Shown here piece by piece: positions 12,870 to 52,821 of a stretch of 64,000 bases of DNA; position 1 is the first letter of the stretch, and each line of letters begins with the position of its first letter. A model generated the notes under the pieces. That model saw only the letters and a program-made list of their open reading frames with translations, was not told the origin of the DNA and ran no database searches. Made by a program: the position numbers and the translations under genes. This stretch comes from Candidatus Latescibacterota bacterium (GTDB taxonomy: Bacteria; Latescibacterota; UBA2968), in assembly GCA_022821275.1 (NCBI GenBank), contig JAJEDY010000033.1, forward strand, positions 82,780 through 146,779, in the 5' to 3' direction.

Positions 12870-12897
12870 AATTAAAATCCTTCGCCAAATGCCGAGC

Positions 12898-14025: not shown

Positions 14026-14057
14026 CCGTTACCTGAAAGTTTTTATGAACAATTACG

Positions 14058-30881: not shown

Positions 30882-30894
30882 TTCGGCATCTCCC

Positions 30895-31713
30895 TTATGT
30901 GCCGTAGAGTGTATCGGCTGTTTTGCCCAAAATCCATGCTCTGTCTTCATCTGACAAAAAATCCATCGCTTCAATTACGCGAAAACCAACTGCTTCTCCG
31001 CGTTGTGGATTCTCCGGAAATCCCGTACATCCCAGCATCCGTTCAGGCCCAAAAGCCTCGTACACGGCTCTGACATAGGGATACACATCCTCGTGTGGCC
31101 AGGGTTGCTCGGATATCCCATCAATCCGGGTCGCTTTAACAACGAGATTGGGATATTTTGCCGCTGCCAGCAAGATCCCGAAACTGCCGTTCAGCCCCTC
31201 GGACAGTATCGGCTCGCCCAGGTGATCTACTATCACATTTACCTCGGGAAATTGTTGCAACATCGGCTCCAGCAGTGGAATCTGATGGCAGCGTCCAAAC
31301 CATGTAAACGGCACGCCCAGTCTTTGTGCCGTCTCCCAAAGTGCATGCTGCCCAGGGTCTGACAACCACGACGCATCCCGATCTTTAATCGGATACAATC
31401 GCATTCCCTGCACCCCGTGATTCCGGTGCAGACGCGCCAGCGTTTCGGATGCGTCGGGTTTCTGGGGATCGATCAGCGCTACCCCGTGCAGGCGATCTGG
31501 AAATCGCCTCAAGCAATCGCACATATATCGATTGTCATACCCGTGATACATGCACTGGATCAGTACGGTGCGGTCTATTTCATTGAGATCCATGTACCTG
31601 ATGAGATTTTCCACCAGCCCCGGATAATCGGGCCGTTGCGCGGTCATGTCATCGTTATGGGTAAACGGCGGTGTCCCCATTGTCCATACGTGTACGTGAG
31701 AATCGATGCGCAT
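30895..31713 (-). CDS. Amidohydrolase-2 family metal-dependent hydrolase (TIM barrel)
   Basis: Start trimmed to MRIDSHVHVW, the HxH metal motif (ATG at 31713). Confidence 0.7.
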   Translation of the reverse strand: MRIDSHVHVWTMGTPPFTHNDDMTAQRPDYPGLVENLIRYMDLNEIDRTVLIQCMYHGYDNRYMCDCLRRFPDRLHGVALIDPQKPDASETLARLHRNHGVQGMRLYPIKDRDASWLSDPGQHALWETAQRLGVPFTWFGRCHQIPLLEPMLQQFPEVNVIVDHLGEPILSEGLNGSFGILLAAAKYPNLVVKATRIDGISEQPWPHEDVYPYVRAVYEAFGPERMLGCTGFPENPQRGEAVGFRVIEAMDFLSDEDRAWILGKTADTLYGT

Positions 31714-31726
31714 GGTCTCCTCCCAT

Positions 31727-32641
31727 TTAATAGGCATCCCCATCCGCCAGGACAAGCTCACACAGGGCATCGAGCGTAATCCCCACGGGGAGCATCTCCA
31801 TTTGCTCGCAGAAATCACCAATTGATCTGAGTATCAACTCCAGGTTCTGCCTTGCGGGATGCCCGGGGTCGGAATAATCCTGATCATTATGGCTGTCCGT
31901 CACAAGGGTGCCAAACCGGGGATCTTCGGTCCGGAAACGATTTAGCACATCCCGAATAACTGCTCTGTGGTCGTACGTGTGCGGGACATAGGACCACTCA
32001 TAACCCTGCTCGCCCGCATGGCCCTGCGCAACCGGCCTGCCAAATGCTGCGGATACCGGTACATTGATAAAGTCGCTATTTCCTCGTATCAAACGAAATT
32101 CCAGATGCGCCCGGTGAGGATAGGGCTCTGCACCGGCCCAAACACTGCAGTGCGCGGGCAAAACCCGCCCTGGATTTGAAAGACTGCCGCCCACAAATCC
32201 CAGTTCGCGCAGCACGCCGAATGTGCAATCATTGGCGGAAAAATAACCCGCTCTGAAATAACGGGGCGCCTTGCCCAGCGCAGACGCCCATATCTCCATT
32301 GCCTCTTGAATAATCTCGCGCTGTGTACGCGCAGAATACGCGCCCAGATCGTATTTGTATCTTCCCTCTCTGAGCTTGTATGGATGCAAATGTAGCCCCA
32401 AACACGCGCCCTGATCTTGCAGTGTCTGAAGCAGATCTGCATTTTCAAGCGCTACTTCCGGGTGTGCAAAAAGCGTGACTGGAAACCCGTACGCCTTTGC
32501 CGTCTCAACGAAAAAATAGATCGACCGTTCACTCTCCCGGTAATCCGCAGGGCCACTGCCCGACATTCGCCTCGCATGTGGGGTCACGTCGGATCTGGCC
32601 GTCTCGCAGTCCATTGTCAGCAACACATAAACTTTTTTCAA
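31727..32641 (-). CDS. Putative polysaccharide deacetylase (CE4-like)
   Basis: LTMDCE N-terminal motif resembling NodB TFDDG, and His-rich segments. Confidence 0.4.
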   Translation of the reverse strand: MKKVYVLLTMDCETARSDVTPHARRMSGSGPADYRESERSIYFFVETAKAYGFPVTLFAHPEVALENADLLQTLQDQGACLGLHLHPYKLREGRYKYDLGAYSARTQREIIQEAMEIWASALGKAPRYFRAGYFSANDCTFGVLRELGFVGGSLSNPGRVLPAHCSVWAGAEPYPHRAHLEFRLIRGNSDFINVPVSAAFGRPVAQGHAGEQGYEWSYVPHTYDHRAVIRDVLNRFRTEDPRFGTLVTDSHNDQDYSDPGHPARQNLELILRSIGDFCEQMEMLPVGITLDALCELVLADGDAY

Positions 32642-32669
32642 ACTACGCCCCTGTAGGATAGTCTGGTTC

Positions 32670-33497
32670 TCACAGGTTTAAAATTCTCACTGCATTGTTG
32701 TGCAAGATATCCTCCAGTGCATCGGGGGCGAGCATGCGCTTGAGGAATGGGAGACTCAATTGCGCGAAACACGCGCCGCGGGAGAGGCCCGCACCCTTGC
32801 CATCTCTGCACGGGCAGTCCGTGGCAAACATCAACTTTTTGCCATGCCGTGCCAGGAATCCCGCGGTGAAGTCCTCGTCTCGCGTCAGTCCGCCCAGACC
32901 CGAACCCGCGGATAAGTCGGCAAACATATTGGGGTAGTCTGCCAATAGCCGATCTATTAAGCCGCCGGGTTTGACGGTGCCTTTGGGATATAAGGTCTCT
33001 TCGGGGGCGGGTACGTCGGCGCTGATATGCGCCCACCACGATTGGGCATGGCCGATGAATTTAATATTGGTGAATTTTTTTAGTAGTATTTCGAGGTGTT
33101 CAATCCCTTGATTATATCCCCGCGCGCCTTCTTGAAAATGCCAGGTTACGGGCCAGTTCAATTCATTGCAGACTGCCAGTACTTTTTCCAATCGCGGATC
33201 GTCCAATCGCAGGTGCTGTTTTTGTTCGCCATAGCCCTTAAAGATGTCGCTGGCGGCGCGTTTTTCCAGTTCGGGTACGGCGTCTTTTCGCGTGACATCT
33301 ACATGGCAGAAGGGTATGATGATGTCCGGGTAATCCCGATGCGCCTTTACTATGTCTTCGGTCATCCAGCCAAACTCGTCGTCGCCATCTTCAATGGGTA
33401 GCATGACGGCTTTTTCTGCGCCAATGGCTTCGATATGTGTGATGGTTTCTTCAACCGATCTGCCGTTGTGTGTGAGATGTAAATGCGCGTCGATCAT
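32670..33497 (-). CDS. Amidohydrolase family protein
   Basis: Start trimmed to MIDAHLHL. The ATG at 33497 forms an ATGA overlap with the upstream gene, and the long Arg-rich extension of the ORF is spurious. Confidence 0.65.
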   Translation of the reverse strand: MIDAHLHLTHNGRSVEETITHIEAIGAEKAVMLPIEDGDDEFGWMTEDIVKAHRDYPDIIIPFCHVDVTRKDAVPELEKRAASDIFKGYGEQKQHLRLDDPRLEKVLAVCNELNWPVTWHFQEGARGYNQGIEHLEILLKKFTNIKFIGHAQSWWAHISADVPAPEETLYPKGTVKPGGLIDRLLADYPNMFADLSAGSGLGGLTRDEDFTAGFLARHGKKLMFATDCPCRDGKGAGLSRGACFAQLSLPFLKRMLAPDALEDILHNNAVRILNL

Positions 33498-34582
33498 GTC
33501 AATACCTCCAGCAATTTTTCTGCGACTGCGGTTTCTTCTCCTATTTGCATGGTCATCGGGTCGATTAAAATACCTCTGGCACTTCGCCGTACGACAATTG
33601 ATGGTTCGCCCTCTTTCAATGCGTGGATTACGGCATCGCGCTGTTCTTCCGGCAGGTCTATGTATGCGCGGGGTGCGATCTCGGGCGCGGCATCCTGCCC
33701 TTCGGTCATTACATAGGCGTTTGTTATGTTTTTGACTGCATCTACGACAACGCGAACTTGCCCGTGCCATCGCTGGCAGTCTTCATCATCGCTTCGGCTC
33801 AAAAACAGATCTACAGCGGCGATCAATCCCAGGATTTCTTCTTTGCCGACTTTCATGCCGCGTCCAATTGCCGAATGCGGACTCGCATTGATCCGCACGG
33901 CTTCTACGCAATCCGCTTTTCCCACGACCAGACCGCTGTTTTGAGGCCCGCACAATCCCTTGCCGCCGCTGAATGTCACCAGGCTCGCACCCATTTCGAC
34001 GAGTTCGGTTAAGTTTGACCGGGGAGGTAACTGTGCAGCCGCATCTACCATGACGGGTACGCCTTTTTTGTCGGCGCGGGCGATGACTTCTGCGAGTTGT
34101 TCTTTGCTCTGTTTGCCCAAAAAATGCACGACAGCCGCTGTTTTTTCGCCGATTCCGCCTATGAGGTCTTCACTGGTTACCGCTTGTTTGCTGCCCACTC
34201 GCACGAGTTTGCCTCCGCAGACTTCTATGCCCTGATGGATGTACGTATGGCTATCGACCAGGCTGATTACAAATTCGTTTTGCCATCCCTGTGTATGTGG
34301 CAACTGACGCGCTTTAGCTATTTCAGGTCCGGTCAAACACGCCGCAGCGGATAATTGTACACCGCTGGCTGCGCCACATGAGATAAAGGCCGCAGGTACG
34401 CCAATGCGGTCTGCCAGATATTCACCTGCTTTTACGAGCAGGTCGTTCAAATCGACAAATGATCCTCCCGCCGCGCACATCGCCTCCAGGACTTCATCTG
34501 GCATTAAGCTGCCGCCGAGTGTGGTAATGGTGCCACTCGCGTTGATAAATGGTTTTACGCCGAGTGTGTCGTAGGTGATCAT
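33494..34582 (-). CDS. SelA-like PLP-dependent enzyme (DgaE / D-glucosaminate-6-phosphate ammonia-lyase-like)
   Basis: FSGGKGLCGPQ contains the PLP-lysine motif of the SelA family. 362 aa. Confidence 0.65.
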   Translation of the reverse strand: MITYDTLGVKPFINASGTITTLGGSLMPDEVLEAMCAAGGSFVDLNDLLVKAGEYLADRIGVPAAFISCGAASGVQLSAAACLTGPEIAKARQLPHTQGWQNEFVISLVDSHTYIHQGIEVCGGKLVRVGSKQAVTSEDLIGGIGEKTAAVVHFLGKQSKEQLAEVIARADKKGVPVMVDAAAQLPPRSNLTELVEMGASLVTFSGGKGLCGPQNSGLVVGKADCVEAVRINASPHSAIGRGMKVGKEEILGLIAAVDLFLSRSDDEDCQRWHGQVRVVVDAVKNITNAYVMTEGQDAAPEIAPRAYIDLPEEQRDAVIHALKEGEPSIVVRRSARGILIDPMTMQIGEETAVAEKLLEVLT

Positions 34583-34594
34583 TGTAAGGTCCTT

Positions 34595-35374
34595 TCAATA
34601 AGGAAACGTCTCTGAGTCCTCTGCCTGTGACAGTTCAGCAAAGAATCGCCCGGTTCCTTCCACGGCTGAGTTTAAGACTGTTTCACCTTTTTGCGCTGAG
34701 GCTTTACGCGCATCGCCGCCAGCGGATGTGGGCAAATACAAATGCCAGGGGCGCACAAAGTCGATGTGAAATTCTCGTAGTGTTTTCAATTTGGGATATT
34801 GGGGAGGATTGTTGGTTATCAGATCTTCGCGCACGAGTTCGGGGCGCAAGAACAGGATTTGGGAGGTTTCTTCTTCGCCTGCGTGATCGCTGCGGTTTTC
34901 CCATGTAGCTTTTGCGTCTTCCGATGCACAGGATCCCGTGCTGATCAGGCATGTGAAGAGTCCATCTTGTGCTGCCAAATCGCGCTGTACTGCGCGGATG
35001 GTGTCGGGATTGCCGCCGTGACCATTGATGAAGACAATGCGGTGTACATTTTCCGCACGGCACATTGTGACGAGGTCTTTTAACAGGTTCATAAATGTGG
35101 GGACTTGCATGCGGCACGCGAATGGAAAGGCGCGAAAGTTGTTGTTTAAGCTCATTCGCTGCGTGGGCAAACACAGGACGCGCCCGCCCAGTTCATTGGC
35201 TTTGCGCGTGCCCCCGTAAGCCACGTATTCGACCTGAAAGCTGTCCGTCCCATAGGGCAATGCAGGTCCGTGTGGTTCGGTGGAGCCTATGGGGATGACC
35301 GCTACATTGGGTGCGAGTGATCGCACGTCGTCTATGGTCATTTCTTCCAGGATGCCCGAGAGTTTCTGGCGCAT
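34595..35374 (-). CDS. Creatininase family amidohydrolase
   Basis: IPIGSTEPHGPALPYGTD and FINGHGGN are the creatininase signatures. Confidence 0.8.
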   Translation of the reverse strand: MRQKLSGILEEMTIDDVRSLAPNVAVIPIGSTEPHGPALPYGTDSFQVEYVAYGGTRKANELGGRVLCLPTQRMSLNNNFRAFPFACRMQVPTFMNLLKDLVTMCRAENVHRIVFINGHGGNPDTIRAVQRDLAAQDGLFTCLISTGSCASEDAKATWENRSDHAGEEETSQILFLRPELVREDLITNNPPQYPKLKTLREFHIDFVRPWHLYLPTSAGGDARKASAQKGETVLNSAVEGTGRFFAELSQAEDSETFPY

Positions 35375-35395: not shown

Positions 35396-37483
35396 ATGCT
35401 GTGCGAATGGTGGGACGCTCATGATAAGTTGCCATTTCTTCCATGTCAAGGGATCGGCGGGGGAAGGGACAGGGTAATATTACGCAGCTTGACCGATGCT
35501 GTTCTCGGTGTTATTATGGACGCCTATTTTTTATTCTCCATATTTCGGTGTCCTATGACCATTCGCGCGATTATTATTGGCCTTTGCCTATCTGTTTGGG
35601 TGAATTTTTGGCCTGCGTATAGCAGCCTGATTCTGCGTTCTTCTCGCGCGGATTTTGCACACCTGTCTGTGGCTTTTCTTATTCCCTTTTTGGCCTTGCT
35701 CGCTTTTAATCACGTTTTTTCGCGCAGATTCAGGGGCCTCTCATCCTTTGAGCTCATCGCGATATGTAGCATTGGCATGGTGGCTGCCAATATGCAAGGC
35801 GAGTGGCTTTCGGGTTATTTTCTCGGCGTTGTTACTGCGCCCATTTATTTTGCGTCAACGCAAAATATGTGGGCCGAAAGGCTGTGGCCGCATTTTACCG
35901 AGTGGAATGTGCTGACAGACCGCGCTGCGGCTACGGGGTTTTACGAAGGGCTGCCGCCCGGTGCTCCTTTTCCCTGGGATGCGTGGATCGCGCTTTTTCC
36001 CGGCTGGATCCTTTTTTTGGGTGCTGTATTTCTCGCCAATTTCTGTGTGGTTATTCTCCTTCGCAAACAGTGGATGGAATACGAGCGGCTCTCTTTTCCC
36101 ATTGCTACGGCACTTCTCGAACTGACGGGTACGGGTGATTCAAAAGATGCGTTTGCCAATCTCGTTCGCTCGCGCTTTTTTCAGATTGGATTTGCACTCA
36201 TTTTTGGCGTTTTTTGCTGGAATGTCGCCTCATGGTTTGTCGCGGCATTGCCCCGTCTAGATGTTATGAGGCAGATCAATATCCCCATTGGTCGCGGTTT
36301 TCCACCGCTGTGGTTTCTCTTTCAGCCGATGACGATTGCATTTGCCTATTTCACGAAATCAGATGTGTTGTATAGCATCTGGTTTTTTCACCTGCTCGCG
36401 ATTCTTCAGGTTGGTATTTTCAATCGCTTTGGTTTGGATTTTGGCGGTTCCGATATGTGGTGTTCTATGGCCCCGGCTATTGGGTGGCAGAGTTTTGGTG
36501 GGTTTATTGTTCTCGTTCTGTGGGGGCTGTGGATGGCGCGCGCCCATTTGCGCAATGTCTGGCGCAAGGTGTGGTCTCGCAATGCACCGATAGATGATGA
36601 GGGGGAACTTTTATCCTACCGCACGGCATTTATTATTTTGATCTTGTGCAGTATTTACACGGTTTTCTTTCTCGTGCAATCGGGTATGAATGTCCTTACC
36701 TTACTCACCTTTTGGGGGGCTACGCTGATTCTCTATCTCGGTCTTGCACATATTATCGCCGAGAGCGGTTTGGTTTTTTTACGCGGTCCTATTACTGCTC
36801 AGGCATTTACCTGGCATGTCCTTGGTGTTGCGGGTATGGGGGTGCCGAGCGCTGTTGCACTGGGGCTGACGTACACATTTTTTTGCGATGCCAAAACTTT
36901 TGCGATTACAACGCTGGCGCATGTCCCGCGTCTGGCCGCGGTTGTGCCCGCCGAACGCCGACGCGCTTTTGTTCCCGCGATTGCCACAGGTGCCTTGATC
37001 GGCGCAACCACTGTTATTGCCTTTACTCTCTATCAGGGCTATTACGGTATTGGCAGCTATAATTTTGGGGTGGTTAGTTTTAATGGGTCCGGCGACGGTG
37101 CCGTGGGTTCGTGGACTTATACCGCCAACCGCATACACGCCGGGACGATGAGTACGGATTGGAATCGCGTGCGGTTTTTGGGTATTGGCGCCGTTTTTAC
37201 AGGTATTTTGCTCTATATTCGCTATCGCTTTCCCCACTTTCCACTTCATCCGATTGGGTTTACAATTTCATCGTCGGGCGTCTTGCGCAGTAGCCTTTTT
37301 TCTATTTTCTTTAGCTGGGCGATTAAAACGCTCGTTCTCAAATTTGGCGGTCTTGAACTCTATCGCAAAATCGCGCCTTTGTTTCTGGGTATGCTTGCCG
37401 GTCAAATAGCCGGTATTGCATTGGGCGTTGTTGTGGATGCGCTTTTTTTCCCGGGCAATGGCCACAAACTCAACAGGTGGTAA
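35396..37483 (+). CDS. Large polytopic membrane protein, unrecognised family (paralog A of 43622..45568)
   Basis: At least 14 hydrophobic segments. ILLRKQWMEYERLSFP and the C-terminal FFPGNGHKLNRW are shared with the paralog. The true start may be an internal Met. Confidence 0.6.
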   Translation: MLCEWWDAHDKLPFLPCQGIGGGRDRVILRSLTDAVLGVIMDAYFLFSIFRCPMTIRAIIIGLCLSVWVNFWPAYSSLILRSSRADFAHLSVAFLIPFLALLAFNHVFSRRFRGLSSFELIAICSIGMVAANMQGEWLSGYFLGVVTAPIYFASTQNMWAERLWPHFTEWNVLTDRAAATGFYEGLPPGAPFPWDAWIALFPGWILFLGAVFLANFCVVILLRKQWMEYERLSFPIATALLELTGTGDSKDAFANLVRSRFFQIGFALIFGVFCWNVASWFVAALPRLDVMRQINIPIGRGFPPLWFLFQPMTIAFAYFTKSDVLYSIWFFHLLAILQVGIFNRFGLDFGGSDMWCSMAPAIGWQSFGGFIVLVLWGLWMARAHLRNVWRKVWSRNAPIDDEGELLSYRTAFIILILCSIYTVFFLVQSGMNVLTLLTFWGATLILYLGLAHIIAESGLVFLRGPITAQAFTWHVLGVAGMGVPSAVALGLTYTFFCDAKTFAITTLAHVPRLAAVVPAERRRAFVPAIATGALIGATTVIAFTLYQGYYGIGSYNFGVVSFNGSGDGAVGSWTYTANRIHAGTMSTDWNRVRFLGIGAVFTGILLYIRYRFPHFPLHPIGFTISSSGVLRSSLFSIFFSWAIKTLVLKFGGLELYRKIAPLFLGMLAGQIAGIALGVVVDALFFPGNGHKLNRW

Positions 37484-37486
37484 AAA

Positions 37487-39031
37487 GTGACTTTTGACCT
37501 GATTATTTGCAATGCAACAGTGATTGACGGCACGGGCCGAACGCCTGGTTTTCAGGCGGATGTTGGCATTTGTGGGGATCGCATTGAGGCCATTGGCGAT
37601 TTGTCTCAGGCAGAGGCCGATACGATTATTGACGCGACGGGGCATATCGTCTGTCCCGGTTTTATCGATGTGCACGTTCATTCGGAAATTGCCCTGCTCA
37701 CAGGTGTTCATCGCTATGCGGAAGTGCAGCAGGGGATTACGACGCAACTTCTGACGCCCGATGGGTTTGGGTGGACGGGGCTGTCGCCCGAGCGCACGCG
37801 CGAATTGTGGACATATACGCGCTTTTCCGTTGGCGAGGTCGATATACCTATTGGCTGGCAAACGCCTGAGGATTATCTGAGTCTTTTTCCCAATAACAGC
37901 CCGGCAAATGTGTATCCGCAAGTTCCTCATTGCGCGGTTCGCCTGTCTGCATGCGGGTGGGATGCGCGCCCCGCAACGGATGATGAGATTGTACAGATGG
38001 CGGATCTTACGCGACAATGGATGGAGGCGGGGGCTGGCGCGCTCAATCTGGGGCTCGATTATCAGCCGAGTGCCAATGCGGATTTTAGGGAGCTTGTCGC
38101 GCTTTGCAAAGTCGCGGCGGAATACGGGGGTATTTACGCGGCTCATGTGCGCTATCACACGATTGGGCGCGTTGCTGCATGGGAAGAGACTATTGCGCTT
38201 TCCCGCGCTGCAAATATCCCGGTTCACATCTCGCACGAGCGGGTCAACGATGAGAATGCCGATTTGCTGGAGAGAATCGAGCGCGAGGATATTGATCTGA
38301 CATTTGAGTCTTATCTCTATCCGGCCGGGATGACCCATTTGTACATGATGTTGCCCATGAAATTTCAGGTCGGCAGTCCGGATGAGGTCAATGCGCGTCT
38401 TGAAGACCCAGAGATTCGCGCTGAGTCCGTCGCCGAACTCAAGACATGGCTCGGGCGCGGCGATCAAATCGTGGGTTACACTGGCTCGGGCAAGTACACG
38501 GGAGAACGTCTGTGCGATCTCGCGGCTCAGGCAAATATGTCTATCGAAGATTTTGCCTACGATCTGATTTTTCAGGAGCGGGAAGATCATGCCGTTATTT
38601 TTCCATGGCAGGTTGATCCCAAAGTAGCCGCGCAGACCGTGACGCGCACAACCACTCATCCGCGTATGATGATTGCCAGTGATGGTATTTTTAATATTCC
38701 GCATCCGCATCCGCGGGGTTTTGGGTGTTTTGCGCGCGTGCTGGGTCATTTTGTGCGCGAGCGCGAGTTGCTGACGTTTGAGGAAGCGATCTACAAGATG
38801 AGCGGTTTTCCCGCACAGCGTTTCAATATTCCCGACCGGGGCGAACTCGCTGTGGGCAAGGCCGCTGATCTCGTTATTTTTAATCCCGATACGGTGGCTG
38901 CGAGATCTACTTTTGAAAATTCCACGTTGCCGCCAGTCGGTATTTCGCATGTTTTTGTCAACGGACAGTTCGTCATTGCTAATGGAGAACCCACAGGTGC
39001 GTTGCCCGGTCAGGTGCTGCGCCGCGTTTAA
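37487..39031 (+). CDS. N-acyl-D-amino-acid deacylase (D-aminoacylase) family amidohydrolase
   Basis: ICNATVIDGTG ... CPGFIDVHVHSE gives the HxH metal ligands. 514 aa. Confidence 0.8.
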   Translation: MTFDLIICNATVIDGTGRTPGFQADVGICGDRIEAIGDLSQAEADTIIDATGHIVCPGFIDVHVHSEIALLTGVHRYAEVQQGITTQLLTPDGFGWTGLSPERTRELWTYTRFSVGEVDIPIGWQTPEDYLSLFPNNSPANVYPQVPHCAVRLSACGWDARPATDDEIVQMADLTRQWMEAGAGALNLGLDYQPSANADFRELVALCKVAAEYGGIYAAHVRYHTIGRVAAWEETIALSRAANIPVHISHERVNDENADLLERIEREDIDLTFESYLYPAGMTHLYMMLPMKFQVGSPDEVNARLEDPEIRAESVAELKTWLGRGDQIVGYTGSGKYTGERLCDLAAQANMSIEDFAYDLIFQEREDHAVIFPWQVDPKVAAQTVTRTTTHPRMMIASDGIFNIPHPHPRGFGCFARVLGHFVRERELLTFEEAIYKMSGFPAQRFNIPDRGELAVGKAADLVIFNPDTVAARSTFENSTLPPVGISHVFVNGQFVIANGEPTGALPGQVLRRV

Positions 39032-39033
39032 TT

Positions 39034-39780
39034 ATGCCTATTCAAGTGAAAATTTGCGATACGCCCGACGATGTGGCCCGCGCTGCCGCATCGGAAATTG
39101 CCGCGCTTATTCGCCAGAAGCCAGATGCTGTGCTGGGTTTGGCGACGGGATCAACGCCTGTGAAGACGTATGCCGAACTCGTGCGGATGAATCAGGGGGG
39201 GCTGAGTTTTTCGCGGCTGACGACCTTTAATCTCGATGATTACTGGGGGCTTGATGGCACGCATCCACAGAGTTATCGTTATTTTATGAATCACGCGTTT
39301 TTTGACGGTACCGATATCCGACTCTGGAATACGCATGTACCCAATGGCACGGCAGTGGATGCCGATCTCGAGTGCGGGGCTTTTGAAACCAGGATACGGG
39401 CGTGTGGTGGTGTGGATTTGTGGTTGCTCGGCATTGGTCGCAATGGACATATTGCTTTTAATGAGCCTGGCAGTGCGCCCGATTCTCGCACCCGTCTGGT
39501 CGATTTGACCGAGAGTACGATTGCGGCGAATAGTCGCTTTTTTAAGCATGTTGAAGATGTGCCCAAACAGGCGCTTACTGCGGGGATTGCGACGATCTGT
39601 GAGGCGAAGCGCATTATCCTTTTGGCGACGGGTAAGGATAAGGCGAGAGTGGTTGCCCGCGCTGTACAGGGTGTTCCACATCCGGTCTGCCCGGCGAGTT
39701 TTTTACAGACACATTCGGATTGTACGTTTATTTTAGATAGAGAGGCGGCATCGGAAGTTAGCCTTGCTCTTAACTCGTAA
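39034..39780 (+). CDS. nagB: Glucosamine-6-phosphate deaminase
   Basis: GLATGSTP and FNLDDYWGL are the NagB signatures. Confidence 0.85.
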   Translation: MPIQVKICDTPDDVARAAASEIAALIRQKPDAVLGLATGSTPVKTYAELVRMNQGGLSFSRLTTFNLDDYWGLDGTHPQSYRYFMNHAFFDGTDIRLWNTHVPNGTAVDADLECGAFETRIRACGGVDLWLLGIGRNGHIAFNEPGSAPDSRTRLVDLTESTIAANSRFFKHVEDVPKQALTAGIATICEAKRIILLATGKDKARVVARAVQGVPHPVCPASFLQTHSDCTFILDREAASEVSLALNS

Positions 39781-39806
39781 TTTTTAATTAAACAGAAAGG
39801 TTTATT

Positions 39807-40901
39807 ATGAAAAAAACCCTTGCCGTGCTCGAAGGCGATGGCATTGGTCCCGAGATTGTACGCGAAGGGATTAAAGCGCTTCGCACGATTGAAAAAAAGT
39901 TCGATCACGAATTTGTGCTCGAATACGCGCCTTTTGGTGCGGCGTCGTATTTTGACGAGGGCAGTCCGTTTCCCGATGAGACAAAAGCCCTGTGTGATCG
40001 GGCAGACGCGATTATCAAGGGTCCGGTGGGGCTTTCTATTGAAGAGACGAAGAAAATTCCACAGGAGTCGCGTCCGGAACTCGGGGCTATTCTGCCTTTG
40101 CGAAAGCGTTTTAATACGTATGCCAATTATCGCCCGGTCAGGCTGCCCAAATCTCTCGCGTCATTTTCCCCCTTGCGCGATAGCGTCGTTGGAGAGGGTA
40201 TTGATATTCTCATGATTCGGGAACTTGTGGGTGGTATTTATTTTGGGGAGAAAGAAGAAGGTACTGCCACGGGTATGAAATACGCGCGTGACGATTGTAT
40301 TTATACCGAAGAACAGGTGCGAGCAATTGGGAAAATTGCGTTTGATGAAGCCCGACGTCTCGGTGTTAAGATGACCCATGTCCACAAATCCAATGTGCTG
40401 GCGACGTCTCGGCTTTGGGATGCGCTTATCGAAGATATGGCAAAAGAATACGACGATGTCGAATACGTGTCGATTATCGTCGATAATGCGGCTTTTCAAC
40501 TCGTTAGAGATCCCAGGCAATTCAATGGGGTTATGCTTCTGGAAAATATGCAAGGCGATATTCTGACCGATCAGGCGGGCGGTTTGCTCGGTTCTCTCGG
40601 TTTGATGCCTTCGGCGTGTATGGGGCCAGAAAAGGGCTATGTGGAACCGGCGCACGGCTCGGCACCCGATATCGCGGGGCAAAATATCGCCAATCCCTAT
40701 TCTATGATTGGCAGTATTGCATTTTTGCTGGATAAATGTCTGGGTCTCAAAGAGGAGTCAGACGCTTTGTGGAATGCTATGTTTGATATTCTCGAAAGAG
40801 GATATGCCACTTCTGAACTCGCCTCAGAAATAACCGATCCCAAGAATGTTCTTTCGACCAGCGATTTTGGCGATATGGTCGTCGATATTTTGAGTCACTA
40901 A
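39807..40901 (+). CDS. Isocitrate/isopropylmalate dehydrogenase family oxidoreductase (LeuB/tartrate DH-like)
   Basis: LEGDGIGPEI N-terminal NAD(P) motif. 364 aa. Confidence 0.75.
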   Translation: MKKTLAVLEGDGIGPEIVREGIKALRTIEKKFDHEFVLEYAPFGAASYFDEGSPFPDETKALCDRADAIIKGPVGLSIEETKKIPQESRPELGAILPLRKRFNTYANYRPVRLPKSLASFSPLRDSVVGEGIDILMIRELVGGIYFGEKEEGTATGMKYARDDCIYTEEQVRAIGKIAFDEARRLGVKMTHVHKSNVLATSRLWDALIEDMAKEYDDVEYVSIIVDNAAFQLVRDPRQFNGVMLLENMQGDILTDQAGGLLGSLGLMPSACMGPEKGYVEPAHGSAPDIAGQNIANPYSMIGSIAFLLDKCLGLKEESDALWNAMFDILERGYATSELASEITDPKNVLSTSDFGDMVVDILSH

Positions 40902-40913
40902 AGGAGATTTTTT

Positions 40914-41984
40914 ATGAGCAATATCATCGCTTTTATTGGTACCTATACTCGCACTGGCAGCAAAGGTATTTACGTTCACCGATTCAATACCGAGACCGGT
41001 GAACTCACTCCGGCTAATAGCATCGAGAGTGAGAATCCGACATTTCTCGCCATTCATCCCAATGGGCGATTTCTCTATGCGGTCAATGAGATCAGTGAAT
41101 ACAATGGCGAGAGCGCGGGGGCGATTAGCGCTTATGCCATTGATGCAGAGGCTGCAGATCTCGCGTTTATCAACCGGCAATCGACAATAGGCACGGGTCC
41201 CTGTCATTTGAATATCGACGCGACGGGTCGCTATGCTGTGGTGGCAAATTACGGTGGGGGTAGTACCTGTATTTTGCCTCTTGGGGAAGACGGTGCGTTG
41301 GGCGAAGCGTCGGATTTTATTCAGCACGAGGGCAGTAGTGTCAATCCGCAACGGCAGCAGGGTCCCCACGCCCATTCTGCGAATATTTCACCGGATAATA
41401 AACGCGTTTATGTTGCCGATCTCGGTTTGGACAAGGTGTTGATTTTTGAGCTCGATCTCGAAAACGGCAAACTCGTTGCGAATGACCCGCCATCTGTCTC
41501 TGTTGCGCCCGGTGAGGGACCGCGCCATTTTGCTTTTCACCCCGGGGGACAATACGCCTATCTGATCAATGAGATCGGAAATACTGTCAATGCGTACGCC
41601 TATGATGCAGAGACCGGCGCGTTGACCGAGTTGCAATCTATCGCCACATTGCCCGGGGATTTTTCAGATACGAGCCATACGGCGGATATTCACGTTTCAT
41701 CCGATGGAAAGTTTGTGTATGGGTCAAATCGCGGTCACGATAGTGTCGCCATTTTTGCGGTTGACGAGTCCAGCGGTCACTTGACGCCGGTCGATATTCA
41801 CTCCACTGGCGGAGAGACGCCTCGCAATATCGCGCTTTCGCCCGATGGCAATTACTTGCTCGCGGAGAATCAAAGTAGCGATACAATTGTTTCTTTCGCC
41901 ATCGACCGCGAGACCGGAAAATTGACAGAGACAGGACATGTCGTGGAAGTGCCCATGCCCGTTTGCCTGAAGTTTTTGGCGTAG
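40914..41984 (+). CDS. 7-bladed beta-propeller lactonase (6-phosphogluconolactonase / carboxy-muconate cyclase-like)
   Basis: Repeating blade pattern, and YVANYGGGS resembles the YbhE/Pgl family. Confidence 0.7.
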   Translation: MSNIIAFIGTYTRTGSKGIYVHRFNTETGELTPANSIESENPTFLAIHPNGRFLYAVNEISEYNGESAGAISAYAIDAEAADLAFINRQSTIGTGPCHLNIDATGRYAVVANYGGGSTCILPLGEDGALGEASDFIQHEGSSVNPQRQQGPHAHSANISPDNKRVYVADLGLDKVLIFELDLENGKLVANDPPSVSVAPGEGPRHFAFHPGGQYAYLINEIGNTVNAYAYDAETGALTELQSIATLPGDFSDTSHTADIHVSSDGKFVYGSNRGHDSVAIFAVDESSGHLTPVDIHSTGGETPRNIALSPDGNYLLAENQSSDTIVSFAIDRETGKLTETGHVVEVPMPVCLKFLA

Positions 41985-41999
41985 AAGGAGAGGTTTGCG

Positions 42000-43493
42000 A
42001 TGTCCAGTGATCGTCCCAATGTGCTTTTGATTATGACGGATCAGCAACCCGTATCGACTATCGGTTGTTATGGCAATTCGGTTGTCGAGACACCCGCGCA
42101 GGACCGCCTGGCACGAGAGGGTATGCGGTTTGACAATTTTTATATTGCGGCGTTTCCGTGTACGCCGTCTCGAGCGACGTATTTGACCGGGCGCTATACG
42201 CACAATCACGGGGTGATGACCAACAATGTGGAATTAGACGATGCGTTGCCGTCAATTGGCAATACATTTCGCGATGCGGGCTATCAAACCGCGTGGATTG
42301 GCAAGTGGCATTTGGGGGGGAATATGTATCGCGAGCTTACAGGACGCGGTCCGTTTGACGATTGCTGGGTGCAAAAGCGGGTAGATAGTACGCGGGATTT
42401 TGAGTTTGTACAGGTGGAAGGCGGCACAGGCGAGGATGAACCCCGCAGTGGATTTGATCACTGGGTTGGGGGATGGAAGCATTTCAAGGCGTATTTGCAG
42501 ACGACCAGTTTGCCCGATGAGGTTAAAAATGCGCCTCGCGTGGGCAATCACCAGGCAGCGCCGAGTGCGCCAGACCGGGAGCACAGTGTGAGTTTGTTGG
42601 GGGAGGATCACCACATGGCACACTTTTTTGCCGATGAGATGGTGTCGTTTCTCAATGCCAATCGGGACAATTCATTTTGTGCGGTGTTGTCTTTTTACGG
42701 ACCGCATTTGCCCGTCTGCCCGCCCGAGCCATGGGATTCGATGTACGATTTGGACGATGTACCCCTGCCCGATAATTACGATGCGCCATTGGAGGATAAG
42801 CCGCGTTTTCAATCGGGTCATGACCGCACTTATGTGCGCGATGTCTGGTCGAGAGATGAGGTTCGGGACTATATTCGGCGTTATTGGGGATATGTGAGTT
42901 ATATCGACGCACAAGTCGAGCGGGTGCTCAACGCGCTGGATGACAATGGTCAGGCGGAGAATACGATTGTGATGTTTGTTTCAGATCACGGCGATATGGT
43001 GGGTCAGTTTGGCATGGTGTATAAGCTGACGTATTGTGGCTACGATACGTTGATGAAGGTGCCGTGTTTGGTGCGGTGGCCCGGGCGGATTGAGGCGGGG
43101 TCTGTGAATACTTCACTGAATAGCAGTGTGGATGTGATGCCCACGCTGCTGGATCTGGCGGGTATGGATATTCCCGAGGGGGTGGATGGCGAGAGTATAG
43201 GCGGTGTTTTGAAGGGCGAGCGCGATGTTGCGCGAGAAGAGATTTTTACGGATTTGATGAATCGCGGTGTGATGCTCAGGCAGGGAACGTGGAAGTTTGT
43301 GTTGAATTGGAAGCCCTCAGATGGCGAGCGCGATTTGGACGAGCTTTACAATCTGGCGGAGGATTCTCTTGAGGAATACAATCTGGTGTATCGGGATCGC
43401 GCGCGTGCCGCATCGATGCGAGATCGCATTTTGAGTTGGTTAGAGGAGACGGGACATCCGTATGTAAATACTATCCGGGAACAGGCATTTTGA
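42000..43493 (+). CDS. Sulfatase (formylglycine-dependent)
   Basis: CTPSRATYLTGRY is the CxPxR FGly motif. The N-terminus LLIMTDQQ is typical of arylsulfatases. Confidence 0.85.
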   Translation: MSSDRPNVLLIMTDQQPVSTIGCYGNSVVETPAQDRLAREGMRFDNFYIAAFPCTPSRATYLTGRYTHNHGVMTNNVELDDALPSIGNTFRDAGYQTAWIGKWHLGGNMYRELTGRGPFDDCWVQKRVDSTRDFEFVQVEGGTGEDEPRSGFDHWVGGWKHFKAYLQTTSLPDEVKNAPRVGNHQAAPSAPDREHSVSLLGEDHHMAHFFADEMVSFLNANRDNSFCAVLSFYGPHLPVCPPEPWDSMYDLDDVPLPDNYDAPLEDKPRFQSGHDRTYVRDVWSRDEVRDYIRRYWGYVSYIDAQVERVLNALDDNGQAENTIVMFVSDHGDMVGQFGMVYKLTYCGYDTLMKVPCLVRWPGRIEAGSVNTSLNSSVDVMPTLLDLAGMDIPEGVDGESIGGVLKGERDVAREEIFTDLMNRGVMLRQGTWKFVLNWKPSDGERDLDELYNLAEDSLEEYNLVYRDRARAASMRDRILSWLEETGHPYVNTIREQAF

Positions 43494-43510
43494 GAGCCAT
43501 CTTGAATTGA

Positions 43511-43545
43511 AAAGGGTTGTCATCGCGCGATGGCGACCCTTTTTG
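43511..43545. terminator. Bidirectional rho-independent terminator (A-run, GC hairpin, T-run) between the convergent sulfatase and membrane-protein B genes
   Basis: AAAAGGGTTGTCATCGCG / CGCGATGGCGACCCTTTTT read directly. Confidence 0.5.
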
Positions 43546-43621
43546 GCGAATAGACGAATAGACGAACCCCACCCAACCACCTAACTACTATCGTTGATTC
43601 GTTGATTCGCTGATTCGTTCC

Positions 43622-45568
43622 TTACCACGAATGTACCATGTGACCGTTGCCGGGGAAGTAGATGTGATCTACGAGTGTGGAAAGGCCAACGCCGAGGGTG
43701 TAGCCGATTAAGAGGCCGATGAAGAAGGGTTGCAAATTGCGGTAGAGCCGAATGCCGCCGATGCGCAATACAATGGATTTGAATGCCCAGACGAGAAAGA
43801 CGGTGAAGGCTGTGACTCTGACGGGATAGACATATCCCACGGTGAATCCCACCGGATGGAGGGGCCACCACGCAAAGCGCAGGCGCATGAGGCTCAAAAA
43901 CAGGGTGCCGAGCGCGCCAGCAGCCAGAAATTGCCATTCAACGCGGCCAAAAGAGGTCGGTTCCGATGCCCAGGAGACGACGCGGTCAAACATGCGCTGG
44001 CTGTACCCGCCGAATACAAAGACGTGGCGGATGTTGGCGGCGCCGGTCGCGCCGTAACAGAGGTTGAGGGTGTAGATAATTGAGACGGCAAAACCGATGA
44101 CAAAGGCGAGCATTAAGGCCGCGACCATGCGATTGCGCGGCCAGCGAAATACGTCGTGAATTTTGGCGGTGTGAGTTAGAGATGGGAGGATGTATTCGCG
44201 GTGGCTTTCCACGCTGTTGGCCGATAGTGCCATGCCGACGTGGTCGGGGGTTTGCACGTTTGTGCCGAGCGCGGCAGCGGCGAGTTCCTGGGTTCGCAGT
44301 GGGGTTTCGACATATACGAGGCCAGTTTCTGCGACGATTTTGGCCAGGCCGATGAAGTAGATCAAGAGTAGGCCGAGTTGTATTGCAATGCCGAGTAGAG
44401 AAATGCCCAGCGCGTACATCCAGGCACTGGCATAGATGAGCGAGATGATCAGGCCGATCACTGCCGTGCGATAAGACAGGAGTTCGGTTTTGTCCTGTGC
44501 ATCGGGTTGCCAGAGTGCGCGGATGACGGTTCCAATATGTTGCCGCGCCATGAAGAGGCCAAACAGGGCAAATGCGATGAAGCCACCGACTTGCTGTAGC
44601 AATAGGCCGCTGCCAAAGTCTTTGCCCACTGTGATGCCAAAGCGGTTTAATGCGCCGATTTCGATGAGCGAGAGGATGTGGAATAGCCAGATGGAGAGCA
44701 GGACTTCGAGGTTGGTGAGATAGCCAAAGGCGGTCATGACAAAGTTGAATTTGATTTGTAGCGGAGGAAAGTCGTGTCCAAATGAGATGGCGGTACGGTA
44801 TGTGGGACCAATGGGTATGATTGGGAGATTGTGCCAGAAGAGGGGTAGTATATTCCAGGATAAGATGAATAAGGCGATGCCAAATCCCGTCCAGAATAAT
44901 TTGTTTTTCAAAAAGCCGATTTGTCCCGATGCTGTATCCCGAATCATGAGTATGGGCAATTGCGCGAGGGGGAAGGTGATGCGTTCGTGTTCGACCCATT
45001 GTTTGCGCAAGATGACGGTGATGCACAAACAGGCGATGAATAGTGCGAAGAAGAATGTGAACCACCAGAAGAGCGGCACAGCCCAGACGTGATAGGGAGT
45101 GGAGAGATGCGCTGGCAATCCTTCCCACAAATTGGTGATGTCGCCCGCGCGATTGCTGGGTACAGCCCAGGGTTGGATGTGTTCGTGGGTAAATTCCGCC
45201 CATCGGTTTTCTGGCGTGGCTTTGTAATAGGGGCTGGCGAGTACGGCGATCAGGCGCCCGGCGACGTTTTTGGTGGGAAAAACGCTGCCTATAAATCCCA
45301 TGCAGAGGATGAGTCCCAATTCATGCGGGCGAAGCATCCAGTTCTCCCGGATTCTTTTGAGCAGGGGATTGATCAGGAAGATAAGGAGAAAGGGTAGCCA
45401 CAATGACATGGGCATGTGGCCGAGGGATACGCGGGATGCGCGAAGGCGATAGGTTGTGTCGGTGGCAAAATAGCAGATGACAAGGGTGAGGATCAGGCCG
45501 ACGATAATGGCGCGGGTGGTGATGTGTGACGTGGGTTCAGGCTGTGGCGCGGGATTGGGTACGCTCAT
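43622..45568 (-). CDS. Large polytopic membrane protein, unrecognised family (paralog B of 35396..37483)
   Basis: ILRKQWVEHERITFP and the C-terminal YFPGNGHMVHSW match paralog A. 648 aa. Confidence 0.65.
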   Translation of the reverse strand: MSVPNPAPQPEPTSHITTRAIIVGLILTLVICYFATDTTYRLRASRVSLGHMPMSLWLPFLLIFLINPLLKRIRENWMLRPHELGLILCMGFIGSVFPTKNVAGRLIAVLASPYYKATPENRWAEFTHEHIQPWAVPSNRAGDITNLWEGLPAHLSTPYHVWAVPLFWWFTFFFALFIACLCITVILRKQWVEHERITFPLAQLPILMIRDTASGQIGFLKNKLFWTGFGIALFILSWNILPLFWHNLPIIPIGPTYRTAISFGHDFPPLQIKFNFVMTAFGYLTNLEVLLSIWLFHILSLIEIGALNRFGITVGKDFGSGLLLQQVGGFIAFALFGLFMARQHIGTVIRALWQPDAQDKTELLSYRTAVIGLIISLIYASAWMYALGISLLGIAIQLGLLLIYFIGLAKIVAETGLVYVETPLRTQELAAAALGTNVQTPDHVGMALSANSVESHREYILPSLTHTAKIHDVFRWPRNRMVAALMLAFVIGFAVSIIYTLNLCYGATGAANIRHVFVFGGYSQRMFDRVVSWASEPTSFGRVEWQFLAAGALGTLFLSLMRLRFAWWPLHPVGFTVGYVYPVRVTAFTVFLVWAFKSIVLRIGGIRLYRNLQPFFIGLLIGYTLGVGLSTLVDHIYFPGNGHMVHSW

Positions 45569-48414: not shown

Positions 48415-49068
48415 TTACCCGATAAAATCATTCGGGCACATGCATTCCACCTGACGTTGTAGCCCCAACGTCAATATGTTTATCGCAGCGTTGTGGTCTC
48501 TGTCGAGAGACACCCCACACGCACATTCATGCCAGCGTTGGGAGAGTGGTTTTTTCTCTACAATACCACATCCTGAGCATGTCTGACTTGTGTATTTGGG
48601 GGTGACGGGTTTGAATCCAATACCAGCTTCTTCCGCTTTGTATTGGAGGCAATGCCGAAACATTGACCATGCCGCATCGCTTATGGATTTAGACAATCGA
48701 CGGTTCTGTTGCATGTCTTGAACATCGAGTTTCTCTGCCGCTCGGCAACCGTTGGAAAACTGCGGATACGTGATAGAATCATAGCGATTTTGACCTTTGT
48801 ATCTGGGAAAGCCTGCTTTCTCACCGGTCTTTGCTTTCTCTTTGAGACGGCGGAAGAACGCTTTGAATGCCAAATCAACACGTACCGCGACTTGTTGTAG
48901 GACTTGACTATAGACCTGGACAAAGCCATTGTGTTGGTGTTTCAGCACCGGCAACATCTTTTGCTGGTCATAGCAGGACAAGGACGCCTTGCTATTCTTA
49001 TAGGTTTGTACCCTGGATGCCACAAGTTGGTTGTATAGCAAGCGACATTCTTCAATATGCACCAGCAA
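48415..49068 (-). pseudogene. tnpB: IS200/IS605-family TnpB (OrfB) relic with in-frame internal deletion removing the WED/RuvC-I region; no tnpA present
   Basis: The N-terminal REC-like part (GFPRYKGQNRYDSITY) is joined directly to RuvC-II (LSKSISDAAWSMF...YKAEEAG), the zinc finger (CSGCG...CACG) and RuvC-III (RDHNAAINI). 217 aa versus about 400 aa for an intact TnpB. Confidence 0.65.
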
Positions 49069-52627: not shown

Positions 52628-52821
52628 GTCGGATGAAGCAACAAAGCGTTCTGGCAATGCCGCTTGAAGGATCCACCTCAAGCGAAATGGAAGCCGCCGA
52701 ATAACGCAGACGCAATCAAACTCACGGTGTAAATTATGAGGTGGAGGTCATGGAGGCCCGCGTTGCGCTACGGCACCAAGACCCCTCGCCGTCAGGGAGT
52801 CTCAACATGACGACAACAGCC

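Follow-up and report, generated by a model that had tools for sequence, protein, structure and literature searches.

What do two large, related membrane proteins contribute to the catabolic gene cluster that they bracket in Candidatus Latescibacterota, an uncultured and sulfatase-rich phylum represented in marine and sponge-associated samples? A sequence-only reading of the 64,000-nucleotide stretch analyzed here (the window) had suggested that they may be transporters, or a transporter and a sensor, of an unrecognised family dedicated to a sulfated amino-sugar-like substrate. The two proteins, hereafter ORF A and ORF B, are as follows.

35555..37483, plus strand: ORF A, 642 aa, DUF6785+DUF6784 membrane protein with a predicted OPT/YSL-superfamily fold (Pfam, AF2, Foldseek)
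43622..45568, minus strand: ORF B, 648 aa, DUF6785+DUF6784 membrane protein with a predicted OPT/YSL-superfamily fold (Pfam, AF2, Foldseek)

Their paralogy was borne out by BLASTP of A against B, which gave 33% identity across ~650 residues at E 1e-110, far beyond chance. The common blocks quoted earlier were found in the A/B alignment as ILLRKQWMEYERLSFPI / VILRKQWVEHERITFPL and NMWAE / NRWAE, with FFPGNGHKLNRW / YFPGNGHMVHSW at the C-terminal end. Each is polytopic, with 12-13 hydrophobic segments by strict Kyte-Doolittle analysis and about 16 or more membrane helices in the AlphaFold models (pLDDT 86.9 for ORF A; pLDDT 93.5 and pTM 0.93 for ORF B). Apart from these two, the 24-48 kb catabolic island encodes no polytopic membrane protein.

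Both ORFs are present where they had been placed, but the start first given for ORF A, 35396, is an over-extension. The true start is almost certainly 35555, corresponding to Met54 of the 695-aa reading, because the homologs of ORF A are all ~642 aa (a 98% homolog has exactly 642), a promoter-like site sits within the supposed N-terminal extension, and strain L004, which is 98% identical and lacks ORF A, keeps the sequence up to 35532. The segment precisely missing in that strain is 35533-37474. The promoter-like sites in this region are the following.

35421..35449, minus strand: candidate promoter TTGACA-17-TATCAT, facing the divergent operon that begins with the creatininase-family and DgaE-like genes (11/12, by consensus match only)
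35489..35517, plus strand: candidate promoter TTGACC-17-TATTAT with TG, upstream of ORF A and its operon (10/12, by consensus match only)

Further promoter-like sites lie upstream of ORF B, at 45776-45748 and 45615-45587, and ORF B appears to form a separate transcription unit.

Contrary to what had been supposed, the family is already catalogued, as Pfam DUF6785 (PF20581) and DUF6784 (PF20580). ORF A scored 293.3 bits (E 3.8e-87) and 79.1 bits (E 3.1e-22) against the two models, respectively, and ORF B 354.3 bits (E 1.2e-105) and 84.8 bits (E 5.1e-24). All four scores exceed the gathering cut-offs of 25 and 26.4 bits, and A and B are full-length members. Neither domain name is mentioned in the literature searched, and NCBIfam has no model for the family. 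Both domains were present in every retrieved homolog, and our analysis indicates that together they make up one OPT-like transporter, DUF6785 and DUF6784 being its N-terminal and C-terminal portions, respectively. The family has its own invariant residues and a C-terminal FPGxGHxxxxW motif, and it occurs mainly in Latescibacterota and neighbouring phyla, whose genomes each carry many paralogs. The absence of MFS, SSS, RND and ABC motifs noted earlier held: no such Pfam or NCBIfam signature was found in A or B, Foldseek matches to transporters of these four types had a TM of 0.16 or less at E above 0.01, and no recurrent ATPase or binding-protein partner was found among 116 neighbours of family genes.

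To our knowledge, barley YS1 (HvYS1) is the only OPT superfamily member with a solved structure, and very few bacterial members are characterised. When the predicted AlphaFold models of A and B, rather than experimental structures, were compared with the PDB by Foldseek, the ORF B model matched 7wsr_A (E 6.1e-9, probability 1.00, TM 0.66/0.71) and the ORF A model matched 7wst_A (E 6.7e-8, TM 0.60/0.63) and 7wsr_A (TM 0.62/0.66). The models would therefore share the overall fold of HvYS1 (PDB 7wsr/7wst) over essentially their full length, at TM 0.60-0.71 and probability 1.00, and there was no match beyond HvYS1 at E 0.001 or better. Profile-profile comparison agreed with the fold comparison. 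The sequences used were the PDB-deposited HvYS1 and database proteins verified as PF03169, and the OPT profile (A5) consisted of 24 diverse proteins, every one so verified. With hhalign, the DUF6785 family profile (A1) aligned to it with 95.6% probability and E 1.2e-8 over 500 columns, and profile A4 at E 4.2e-5, compared with E 0.05-0.24 for reversed-profile nulls. Alignments to the single HvYS1 sequence (E 0.2) or to a narrow plant-only YSL profile (P 0.011, probability 3.7%) were not convincing; the convincing result needed the diverse OPT profile.

The relation is visible only by fold and profile-profile comparison. PDB sequence searches yielded nothing meaningful, whether the query was ORF B by itself or the family profile. 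PF03169 at E up to 0.01 matched neither window protein (0/2), and when 68 family members were scanned with a limit of E 10, a single one matched it (1/68, E 0.023). Hence, DUF6785/DUF6784 proves to be a very distant, separate family within the OPT/YSL superfamily (TC 2.A.67). Confident remote homology, which the sequence-only reading had named in advance as the finding that would speak against it, was thus found, and its statement that the family has no relatives among known transporter families does not hold. Two Pfam domains of unknown function are in this way assigned to a fold and to a superfamily, and a function that can be tested is proposed for them.

The two groups are alike in size (~650 aa) and in their stand-alone single-polypeptide architecture, and their N-terminal halves carry motifs in the same order: TxR[AG] before TM1, the Glu of QE[NL], and R-x8-L-x-[FY]-P. 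Only ~12% of residues are identical, however. Of the OPT hallmark motif R-x8-L-x-[FY]-P-S-G-T-A-T-A, the R, L, F/Y and P are conserved in both OPT and DUF6785, whereas DUF6785 has L, A, Q/E, V, P and L in place of S200, G201, T202, A203, T204 and A205. The proposed proton sites of HvYS1, Asp446, Asp490 and Asp494, align with A/T, L/V and V/F in DUF6785, in a C-terminal half where the alignment is less reliable; in the OPT set, D494 is present in 24/24 proteins and D446 in 23/24. Since neither the proposed proton-site aspartates nor PSGTATA are conserved, the coupling ion and the mechanism may differ from those of HvYS1. A distant bacterial OPT branch without these aspartates could reveal what the elevator mechanism cannot do without.

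Homology to OPT/YSL now backs the transporter role. We consider it likely that A and B are secondary-active inner-membrane transporters of this remote branch, with A importing the substrate of a deacylase and B a related substrate or serving an overlapping role. By analogy with barley YS1, they would most likely be ion-coupled "elevator" importers, in which a rather large organic substrate would travel with a mobile core domain past the scaffold domain. Our results show paralogy, family membership, fold, remote homology and the statistics of gene context, and from them we infer transport direction, ion coupling, the elevator mechanism and the substrate identities. The neighbouring genes are the following.

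28089..35374, minus strand: divergent set of soluble enzymes, with no membrane protein among them
37487..39031, plus strand: D-aminoacylase-family amidohydrolase (Pfam Amidohydro_3)
39034..39780, plus strand: NagB-type glucosamine-6-phosphate deaminase/isomerase (TIGR00502, 271 bits against a cut-off of 236.9)
39807..40901, plus strand: isocitrate/isopropylmalate-dehydrogenase-family enzyme (Iso_dh/LeuB-like; below the leuB cut-off)
40914..41984, plus strand: 7-bladed beta-propeller lactonase (PF10282, E 7e-125)
42000..43493, plus strand: Cys-type formylglycine sulfatase with a CTPSR motif (Pfam Sulfatase and SGSH_C)

The enzyme genes between A and B are as originally described, according to Pfam, TIGR00502, their PDB relatives and the CTPSR motif. 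The amidohydrolase starts 4 bp beyond the ORF A stop codon, and its PDB relatives are D-aminoacylase (1.6e-61), N-acyl-D-glutamate deacylase (2.1e-60) and PpOngB, a GlcNAc1A deacetylase (6.5e-50). The sulfatase, whose best PDB relative is an N-acetylglucosamine-6-sulfatase (6.3e-45), lacks a signal peptide and is convergent with ORF B. The divergent set, which is probably part of the same catabolic island, comprises a heparinase II/III-like protein, two Amidohydro_2 enzymes, a polysaccharide-deacetylase-like protein, a DgaE-family PLP ammonia-lyase and a creatininase-family amidase.

Genes at related loci, called by a codon-usage model, preserve part of the pairing with this cluster: the association of ORF A with the amidohydrolase recurs, whereas ORF B, the sulfatase and the bracketing arrangement do so only in strains that are 97-98% identical. 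Among the orthologs of ORF A (at least 54% identity), an ortholog of the D-aminoacylase-family gene lies immediately downstream in 6/15 loci (40%), and NagB (L084/85, L096, L139) and the IsoDH-like enzyme and lactonase (L084/85) sometimes accompany it. One 78% ortholog of ORF A keeps the operon without the sulfatase; the sulfatase is an add-on specific to the lineage of the window. Strain L004, which lacks ORF A, has ORF B and the operon, so ORF A is not essential for the operon. ORF B has no conserved partner gene. Its 66-70% orthologs occur in an unrelated context, near genes for PdxA, GNAT, 2OG-oxygenase, GT4 and an LMF1/DCC1-like membrane protein, and we rejected it as a conserved partner of the cluster on account of these PdxA, GNAT, 2OG-oxygenase and GT4 neighbours.

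Because ORF B and the sulfatase occur together only in near-identical strains and the orthologs of ORF B lie elsewhere, dedication to a sulfated amino sugar does not hold for the family as a whole. The idea of such a dedicated transporter family without known relatives has in its favour the missing MFS, SSS, RND and ABC signatures, the failure to find a PDB relative by sequence alone, and the presence in the window of a GlcNAc-6-sulfatase-related sulfatase, NagB, a DgaE-like lyase and a heparinase-like protein. It appears extremely improbable given the controlled OPT/YSL homology, the ortholog operon that does without a sulfatase, the restriction of the sulfatase, NagB and ORF B combination to 97-98% identical strains, and the very heterogeneous family neighbourhoods. 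Sulfatase homologs were found near DUF6785 genes in ~14 further loci, but we claim no enrichment, as sulfatases are abundant in these genomes and a background rate is not computable.

Across Latescibacterota, the family is multi-copy and its neighbours are varied and mostly catabolic, including enolase-superfamily enzymes, xylose-isomerase-like TIM barrels, GFO/IDH/MocA proteins, PhyH and 2OG oxygenases, sulfatases and amidohydrolases. As the subfamilies adjoin different genes, each paralog probably has its own substrate. Response-regulator genes are the commonest single neighbour type (6/116), with some histidine-kinase and GAF proteins as well, and glycosyltransferase family 1/4 genes (5/116) are among the commonest; both leave room for non-catabolic roles of some paralogs. 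The family might accordingly be thought to export or flip a cell-envelope or secreted glycoconjugate instead of importing nutrients, a reading to which the GT4, GNAT and LMF1/DCC1-like genes near the ORF B orthologs would also lend themselves. We regard this as quite unlikely, since the neighbours are mostly of catabolic types, degradative cytoplasmic enzymes make up the operon that the gene leads, both in the window and at the loci of A orthologs, and the glycosyltransferase gene at the ORF B orthologs is set apart by an oppositely oriented gene. Moreover, OPT/YSL features include the proton-coupled import of peptides, glutathione, folate or metal chelates, and the characterised members cited are all importers (PMC9691689, PMC12687453).

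The regulator genes, together with the transcription of ORF B apart from the enzymes, might likewise suggest that A, B or both act as membrane sensors or transceptors for substrate availability and carry no flux. However, A and B consist only of a transporter body, with Pfam matches and a predicted YS1-like fold covering nearly their whole length. No regulator gene adjoins either of them in the window, the association with regulators is weak and not clade-specific, and the island encodes no further transporter to carry the flux. Neither an additional domain nor a signalling partner that accompanies the family consistently was found; the sensor role entertained by the sequence-only reading thus finds no support, and we judge it very unlikely.

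Another arrangement would make A and B the two subunits of one heteromeric transporter serving the bracketed cluster, in analogy to YS1, which purifies mainly as a homodimer formed via its scaffold domain and C-terminal strand (PMC9691689). At least two DUF6785 genes share a locus in 30/83 loci, often on the same strand with 7-122 bp between them, and in L085 three family copies flank the orthologous operon. Nevertheless, when 113 family genes were clustered, tandem partners were mostly recent duplicates of the same clade (59-82% identical) and not two conserved partner clades, and the extra copies in L085 were all A-clade; we therefore rejected heterodimers as a general rule for co-located copies. 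A orthologs are found without B and B orthologs without A, the near-identical strain L004 has B but precisely lacks A, and the two genes lie on opposite strands with apparently separate promoters. A heteromer of A and B is accordingly improbable.

Returning to A and B as separate importers, ORF A, at the head of its operon, most likely imports the substrate of the cytoplasmic deacylase encoded immediately downstream. Gene adjacency and enzyme-family resemblance, the basis of the proposal, point to an N-acylated D-amino-acid-like compound, e.g., an N-acetyl-hexosaminic acid or a related amino-sugar-derived acid; more generally, ORF A probably imports an N-acylated amino-acid-like or amino-sugar-acid-like compound. 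ORF B, an old paralog from another clade, would have been recruited beside a lineage-specific cytoplasmic sulfatase; it probably imports a related substrate, which may be sulfated, or has a function overlapping that of A. ORF A and its D-aminoacylase-family enzyme offer a concrete first target for substrate identification.

Only tentatively, we extend this proposal to the family. OPT may have in DUF6785/DUF6784 a bacteria-specific sister family that had gone unrecognised and that multiplied into many substrate-specific paralogs in Latescibacterota and allied phyla. This family would have been repurposed from peptide and metal-chelate uptake, with an ion-coupling site unlike that of YS1, and would now be a main route by which bulky, anionic compounds derived from carbohydrates, such as N-acyl or sulfated amino-sugar acids, cross the inner membrane to be degraded entirely in the cytoplasm. 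The gene context suggests amino-sugar-like or N-acyl-amino-acid-like compounds, in contrast to the peptides or metal chelates of OPT/YSL. Knowing the substrates of the family would clarify how Latescibacterota take up complex organic matter, for which the breakdown enzymes, sulfatases included, appear cytoplasmic.

The nearest known counterpart of the ORF A operon is the ong cluster of Pseudoalteromonas for the catabolism of N-acetyl-glucosaminic acid (GlcNAc1A), whose transporter OngIT belongs to the SSS family (PMC9537276). Both loci encode an inner-membrane importer together with a cytoplasmic D-aminoacylase-family deacetylase (an OngB relative), and they share the logic of import, deacylation and deamination. 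The transporters have unrelated folds, and the use of an SSS-family rather than an OPT-like protein in the known GlcNAc1A pathway is a point against the substrate proposed for ORF A (PMC9537276). The ong cluster has an OngC-type fold-type-III deaminase; the window has none, and carries NagB, the DgaE-like lyase, the IsoDH-like enzyme, the lactonase and the sulfatase. True D-aminoacylases are slightly closer relatives of the window amidohydrolase than OngB is.

The two long open reading frames that the sequence-only reading had placed at 35396..37483 (+) and 43622..45568 (-) were present in the window, and the genes claimed to lie between them were all confirmed. The main features of this island are as follows.

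28089-30974: heparinase II/III-like protein, 961 aa
35449-35421: promoter-like consensus match, facing the opposite way beside the following site
35489-35517: promoter-like site TTGACC-17-TATTAT, near-consensus match, within the supposed extension of ORF A
35555-37483 (+): ORF A, 642 aa
37487-39031: D-aminoacylase-family amidohydrolase between A and B, 4-bp junction with ORF A
between A and B: NagB, TIGR00502 score exceeding the cut-off
between A and B: isocitrate/isopropylmalate-dehydrogenase-family enzyme (IsoDH), under the leuB cut-off
between A and B: 7-bladed lactonase
42000-43493: Cys-type sulfatase between A and B, CTPSR motif
43622-45568 (-): ORF B, 648 aa

BLASTP aligned A and B at 33% identity over ~650 residues (E 1e-110), and the blocks previously quoted for their paralogy (ILRKQW.E.ER..FP, the WAE region and the C-terminal FPGNGH....W) were all found in this alignment. 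On this basis, we regard the two proteins as true paralogs that diverged anciently. The forward-strand frame of ORF A was upheld, but its start at 35396 was not. Translation almost certainly begins at the ATG at 35555, because homologs are ~642 aa throughout and a 98% identical one spans exactly the 642-aa version, the promoter-like site at 35489-35517 falls within the supposed extension, and a close relative of this strain without ORF A keeps the window sequence as far as 35532. The conserved charged residues of ORF B are E83, R188, E195, H344, D359, E362, R367, K597 and D634.

Although the two proteins had been assigned to an unrecognised family, their first ~500 residues match DUF6785 (PF20581) and their last ~90 match DUF6784 (PF20580), both far over the Pfam threshold. 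The family thus has Pfam entries but no assigned function; NCBIfam lacks a model of it, and no sequence-related solved structure was found. In database searches, homologs numbered 274 for B and 223 for A, every one with both domains. PF20581 and PF20580 seem to cover the N-terminal and C-terminal portions of a single transporter. The closest homologs come from metagenome-assembled genomes of Candidatus Latescibacterota, part of them labelled Gemmatimonadota, and further ones from Planctomycetota, Handelsmanbacteria, Zixibacteria and Desulfobacterales. Copies of the locus 97-98% identical to that of the window occur on several complete chromosomes, and scanning a single genome for each species confirmed at least 582 DUF6785/DUF6784 stretches.

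The supposition that the family has no known relatives did not survive profile comparison with the OPT/Yellow-Stripe-like (YSL) transporter superfamily (PF03169). Neither A nor B matches PF03169 itself, and only one of 68 family members touches it (E 0.023). The deposited sequence of the solved barley Yellow Stripe 1 (HvYS1) was retrieved from the PDB using a maize YS1 sequence as bait; plant YSLs, all PF03169, were collected, and diverse representatives were gathered by exhaustive profile search. The family matched HvYS1 alone (E 0.2) and a narrow plant profile (P 0.011) weakly. Against an OPT profile of 24 diverse full-length proteins, with PF03169 verified for each, hhalign gave 95.6% probability and E 1.2e-8 over 500 co-linear columns, and an independent A-clade profile gave E 4.2e-5, compared with E 0.05-0.24 and probabilities of at most 1.1% for reversed-profile controls. 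The family therefore has a confidently identified remote relative among known transporter families, and the superfamily assignment is a solid, conventional remote-homology result.

In the hhalign mapping, the conserved anchors common to both families lie in the N-terminal half, where T17/R19, E83, R188, L197, F199, P200, S292 and G311 of ORF B correspond to T50/R52, E114, R187, L196, F/Y198, P199, S289 and G310 of YS1. The earlier-noted block ILRKQWVEHERLxFP corresponds to the OPT motif LRKxxxxDYKLxYPSGTATA, whose SGTATA part is not conserved in DUF6785. The aspartates proposed as the proton site of HvYS1 (D446, D490 and D494, the last invariant in the 24-protein OPT set) map to uncharged residues in the family, within a C-terminal half whose alignment is less certain. 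Because these aspartates are missing, the coupling ion and binding-site chemistry are probably unlike those of HvYS1. DUF6785/DUF6784 is best described as a separate family inside the OPT superfamily, distinct from OPT proper and set apart by divergent motifs, a non-peptide gene context and its great expansion within an uncultured phylum. It was already catalogued as two DUFs; the literature searched, which covered Latescibacteria genome analyses as well as recent studies of OPT/YSL evolution, mentions neither these domains nor the OPT link.

The claimed pairing of the two proteins with the catabolic cluster held for A and the amidohydrolase in part of the A orthologs of at least 54% identity, but for B, the sulfatase and the bracketing arrangement it did not extend beyond near-identical strains. 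The full order (B, sulfatase, lactonase, IsoDH, NagB, amidohydrolase, A) is confined to strains that share 97-98% identity with the window. The 78% ortholog of A heads an operon of DUF6785, Amidohydro_3, NagB-like, kinase, Iso_dh and lactonase genes that lacks a sulfatase and is adjoined by two more A-clade copies, and a 62% ortholog retains its adjacent amidohydrolase. Across deduplicated metagenomic and genomic loci, 6 of the 15 A-clade genes with ≥54% identity are directly followed by an orthologous amidohydrolase (E 1e-218 or better), versus 0/22 at 45-54% and 0/15 under 45%. What is conserved is therefore the pair of ORF A and the D-aminoacylase-family enzyme, joined at times by NagB, IsoDH and lactonase; B and the sulfatase were added only in the window's lineage. 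In the operon of the 78% ortholog, an acetate-kinase-family gene (385 aa; L084 7765-8922, L085 9310-10467) sits between the NagB-like and Iso_dh genes, and the presence of a kinase and absence of a sulfatase suggest a phosphorylating variant of the same pathway.

Orthologs of B at 66-70% identity sit in another setting, which is consistent across loci (L001/L002 7463-13000, also L008 and L016): PdxA-family, GNAT and RidA genes flank one side, a 2OG-Fe(II) oxygenase flanks the opposite side, and neither a sulfatase nor NagB is present. The differing conserved context hints that this subfamily has a different substrate.

On the 98% identical Latescibacterota chromosome L004 (OZ244847.1), window positions 35533-37474, nearly exactly the ORF A coding sequence, are missing (the gap corresponds to L004 18019-18202), yet the promoter region, downstream operon and ORF B are retained. 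The presence of ORF A thus varies between near-identical strains, as a clean gene-sized polymorphism, and the gene is not essential. That L004 holds B without A also makes it unlikely that the two proteins form a fixed heteromer. Moreover, the extra copies beside the 78% A-ortholog operon are all A-clade, and clustering of 113 genes showed that neighbouring copies are mostly recent duplicates of the same clade (59-82% identical) rather than two conserved partner types. Two or more copies occur in 30 of 83 loci, often spaced by 7-122 bp on the same strand. Because the same chromosomes turn up repeatedly among the best 80 loci, and one contig of 8,426,055 bp carries at least nine distinct A-clade paralogs (P0147, P0154, P0156, P0179, P0208, P0210, P0214, P0235 and P0237), the family is strongly multi-copy in these organisms. 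At another locus (L060 7972-13967), three DUF6785 genes stand in succession, and local and genome-wide multiplication is extreme.

A Pfam census of 116 immediate neighbours at 40 non-redundant loci found 148 families, none dominant. Response regulators (6) and GT1/GT4 glycosyltransferases (5) were the commonest, followed by PdxA, the enolase superfamily, xylose-isomerase-like TIM barrels, GFO/IDH/MocA, PhyH, GNAT and 2OG oxygenases (three each); sulfatases numbered 2/116, and no ATPase or binding protein recurred among these neighbours. Such heterogeneity, without a dominant or recurrent partner, is what a family of stand-alone carriers would show if its subfamilies differed in substrate. The occasional glycosyltransferase neighbours suggest exporters or flippases and are the sole hint in that direction, and a sensor role, previously considered, is unsupported by domain or partner evidence. 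Dedication of the family to a sulfated amino sugar likewise fails, given these neighbours and the sulfatase-free operon of the 78% A ortholog.

A and B are the sole polytopic membrane proteins in the island of soluble catabolic enzymes at 24-48 kb in the window, and no signal peptides were seen on these enzymes, including the sulfatase and the heparinase-like protein, when the N-termini of the translations were read by eye. Therefore, the substrates of the island would have to enter intact. By their OPT homology, A and B would be ion-coupled, elevator-type importers. The 4-bp junction and conserved adjacency indicate that A probably feeds the amidohydrolase. Among proteins of solved structure, this enzyme is related to D-aminoacylase, N-acyl-D-glutamate deacylase and OngB, which deacetylates N-acetyl-glucosaminic acid (PMC9537276, PMC12017989). 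With modest confidence, we infer that A imports an N-acylated D-amino-acid-like compound, such as an N-acetyl-hexosaminic acid. This proposal is consistent with the lactonase, NagB and DgaE-like neighbours. It also agrees with what OPT proteins are known to carry, namely carboxylates with an amide or amine group (peptides, glutathione, chelates of nicotianamine and mugineic acid, and folate; PMC9691689, PMC12687453). B, which has its own promoter-like sites and is convergent with the sulfatase, probably either overlaps with A in function or brings in a related compound that may be sulfated; functional overlap would accord with the loss of A in L004. The apparent lack of signal peptides on the sulfatase (42000-43493) and heparinase-like protein (28089-30974) implies that desulfation and lyase steps are cytoplasmic, which is unusual in contrast to periplasmic polysaccharide-utilisation systems.

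Just outside the catabolic island, 49313-54408 (+) encodes a 1104-aa protein matching the PADLOC HmaC AAA+ ATPase model (8.8e-77) and Pfam DUF499, and a 555-aa AAA_22-type ATPase comes next; these genes could belong to an anti-phage defence system. A 217-aa ORF at 48415-49068 (-) matches Cas12f1-like_TNB (2e-23) over only the C-terminal TNB/RuvC-proximal part of a TnpB/Cas12f-like protein and is probably a truncated TnpB remnant at the island boundary. Elsewhere, 11079-14321 (-) encodes a biotin-carboxyl-carrier and carboxyltransferase protein (PYC_OADA, HMGL-like, Biotin_lipoyl), then a ~7-TM protein and a small 2-TM protein, an arrangement resembling a sodium-pumping oxaloacetate/methylmalonyl-CoA decarboxylase operon.
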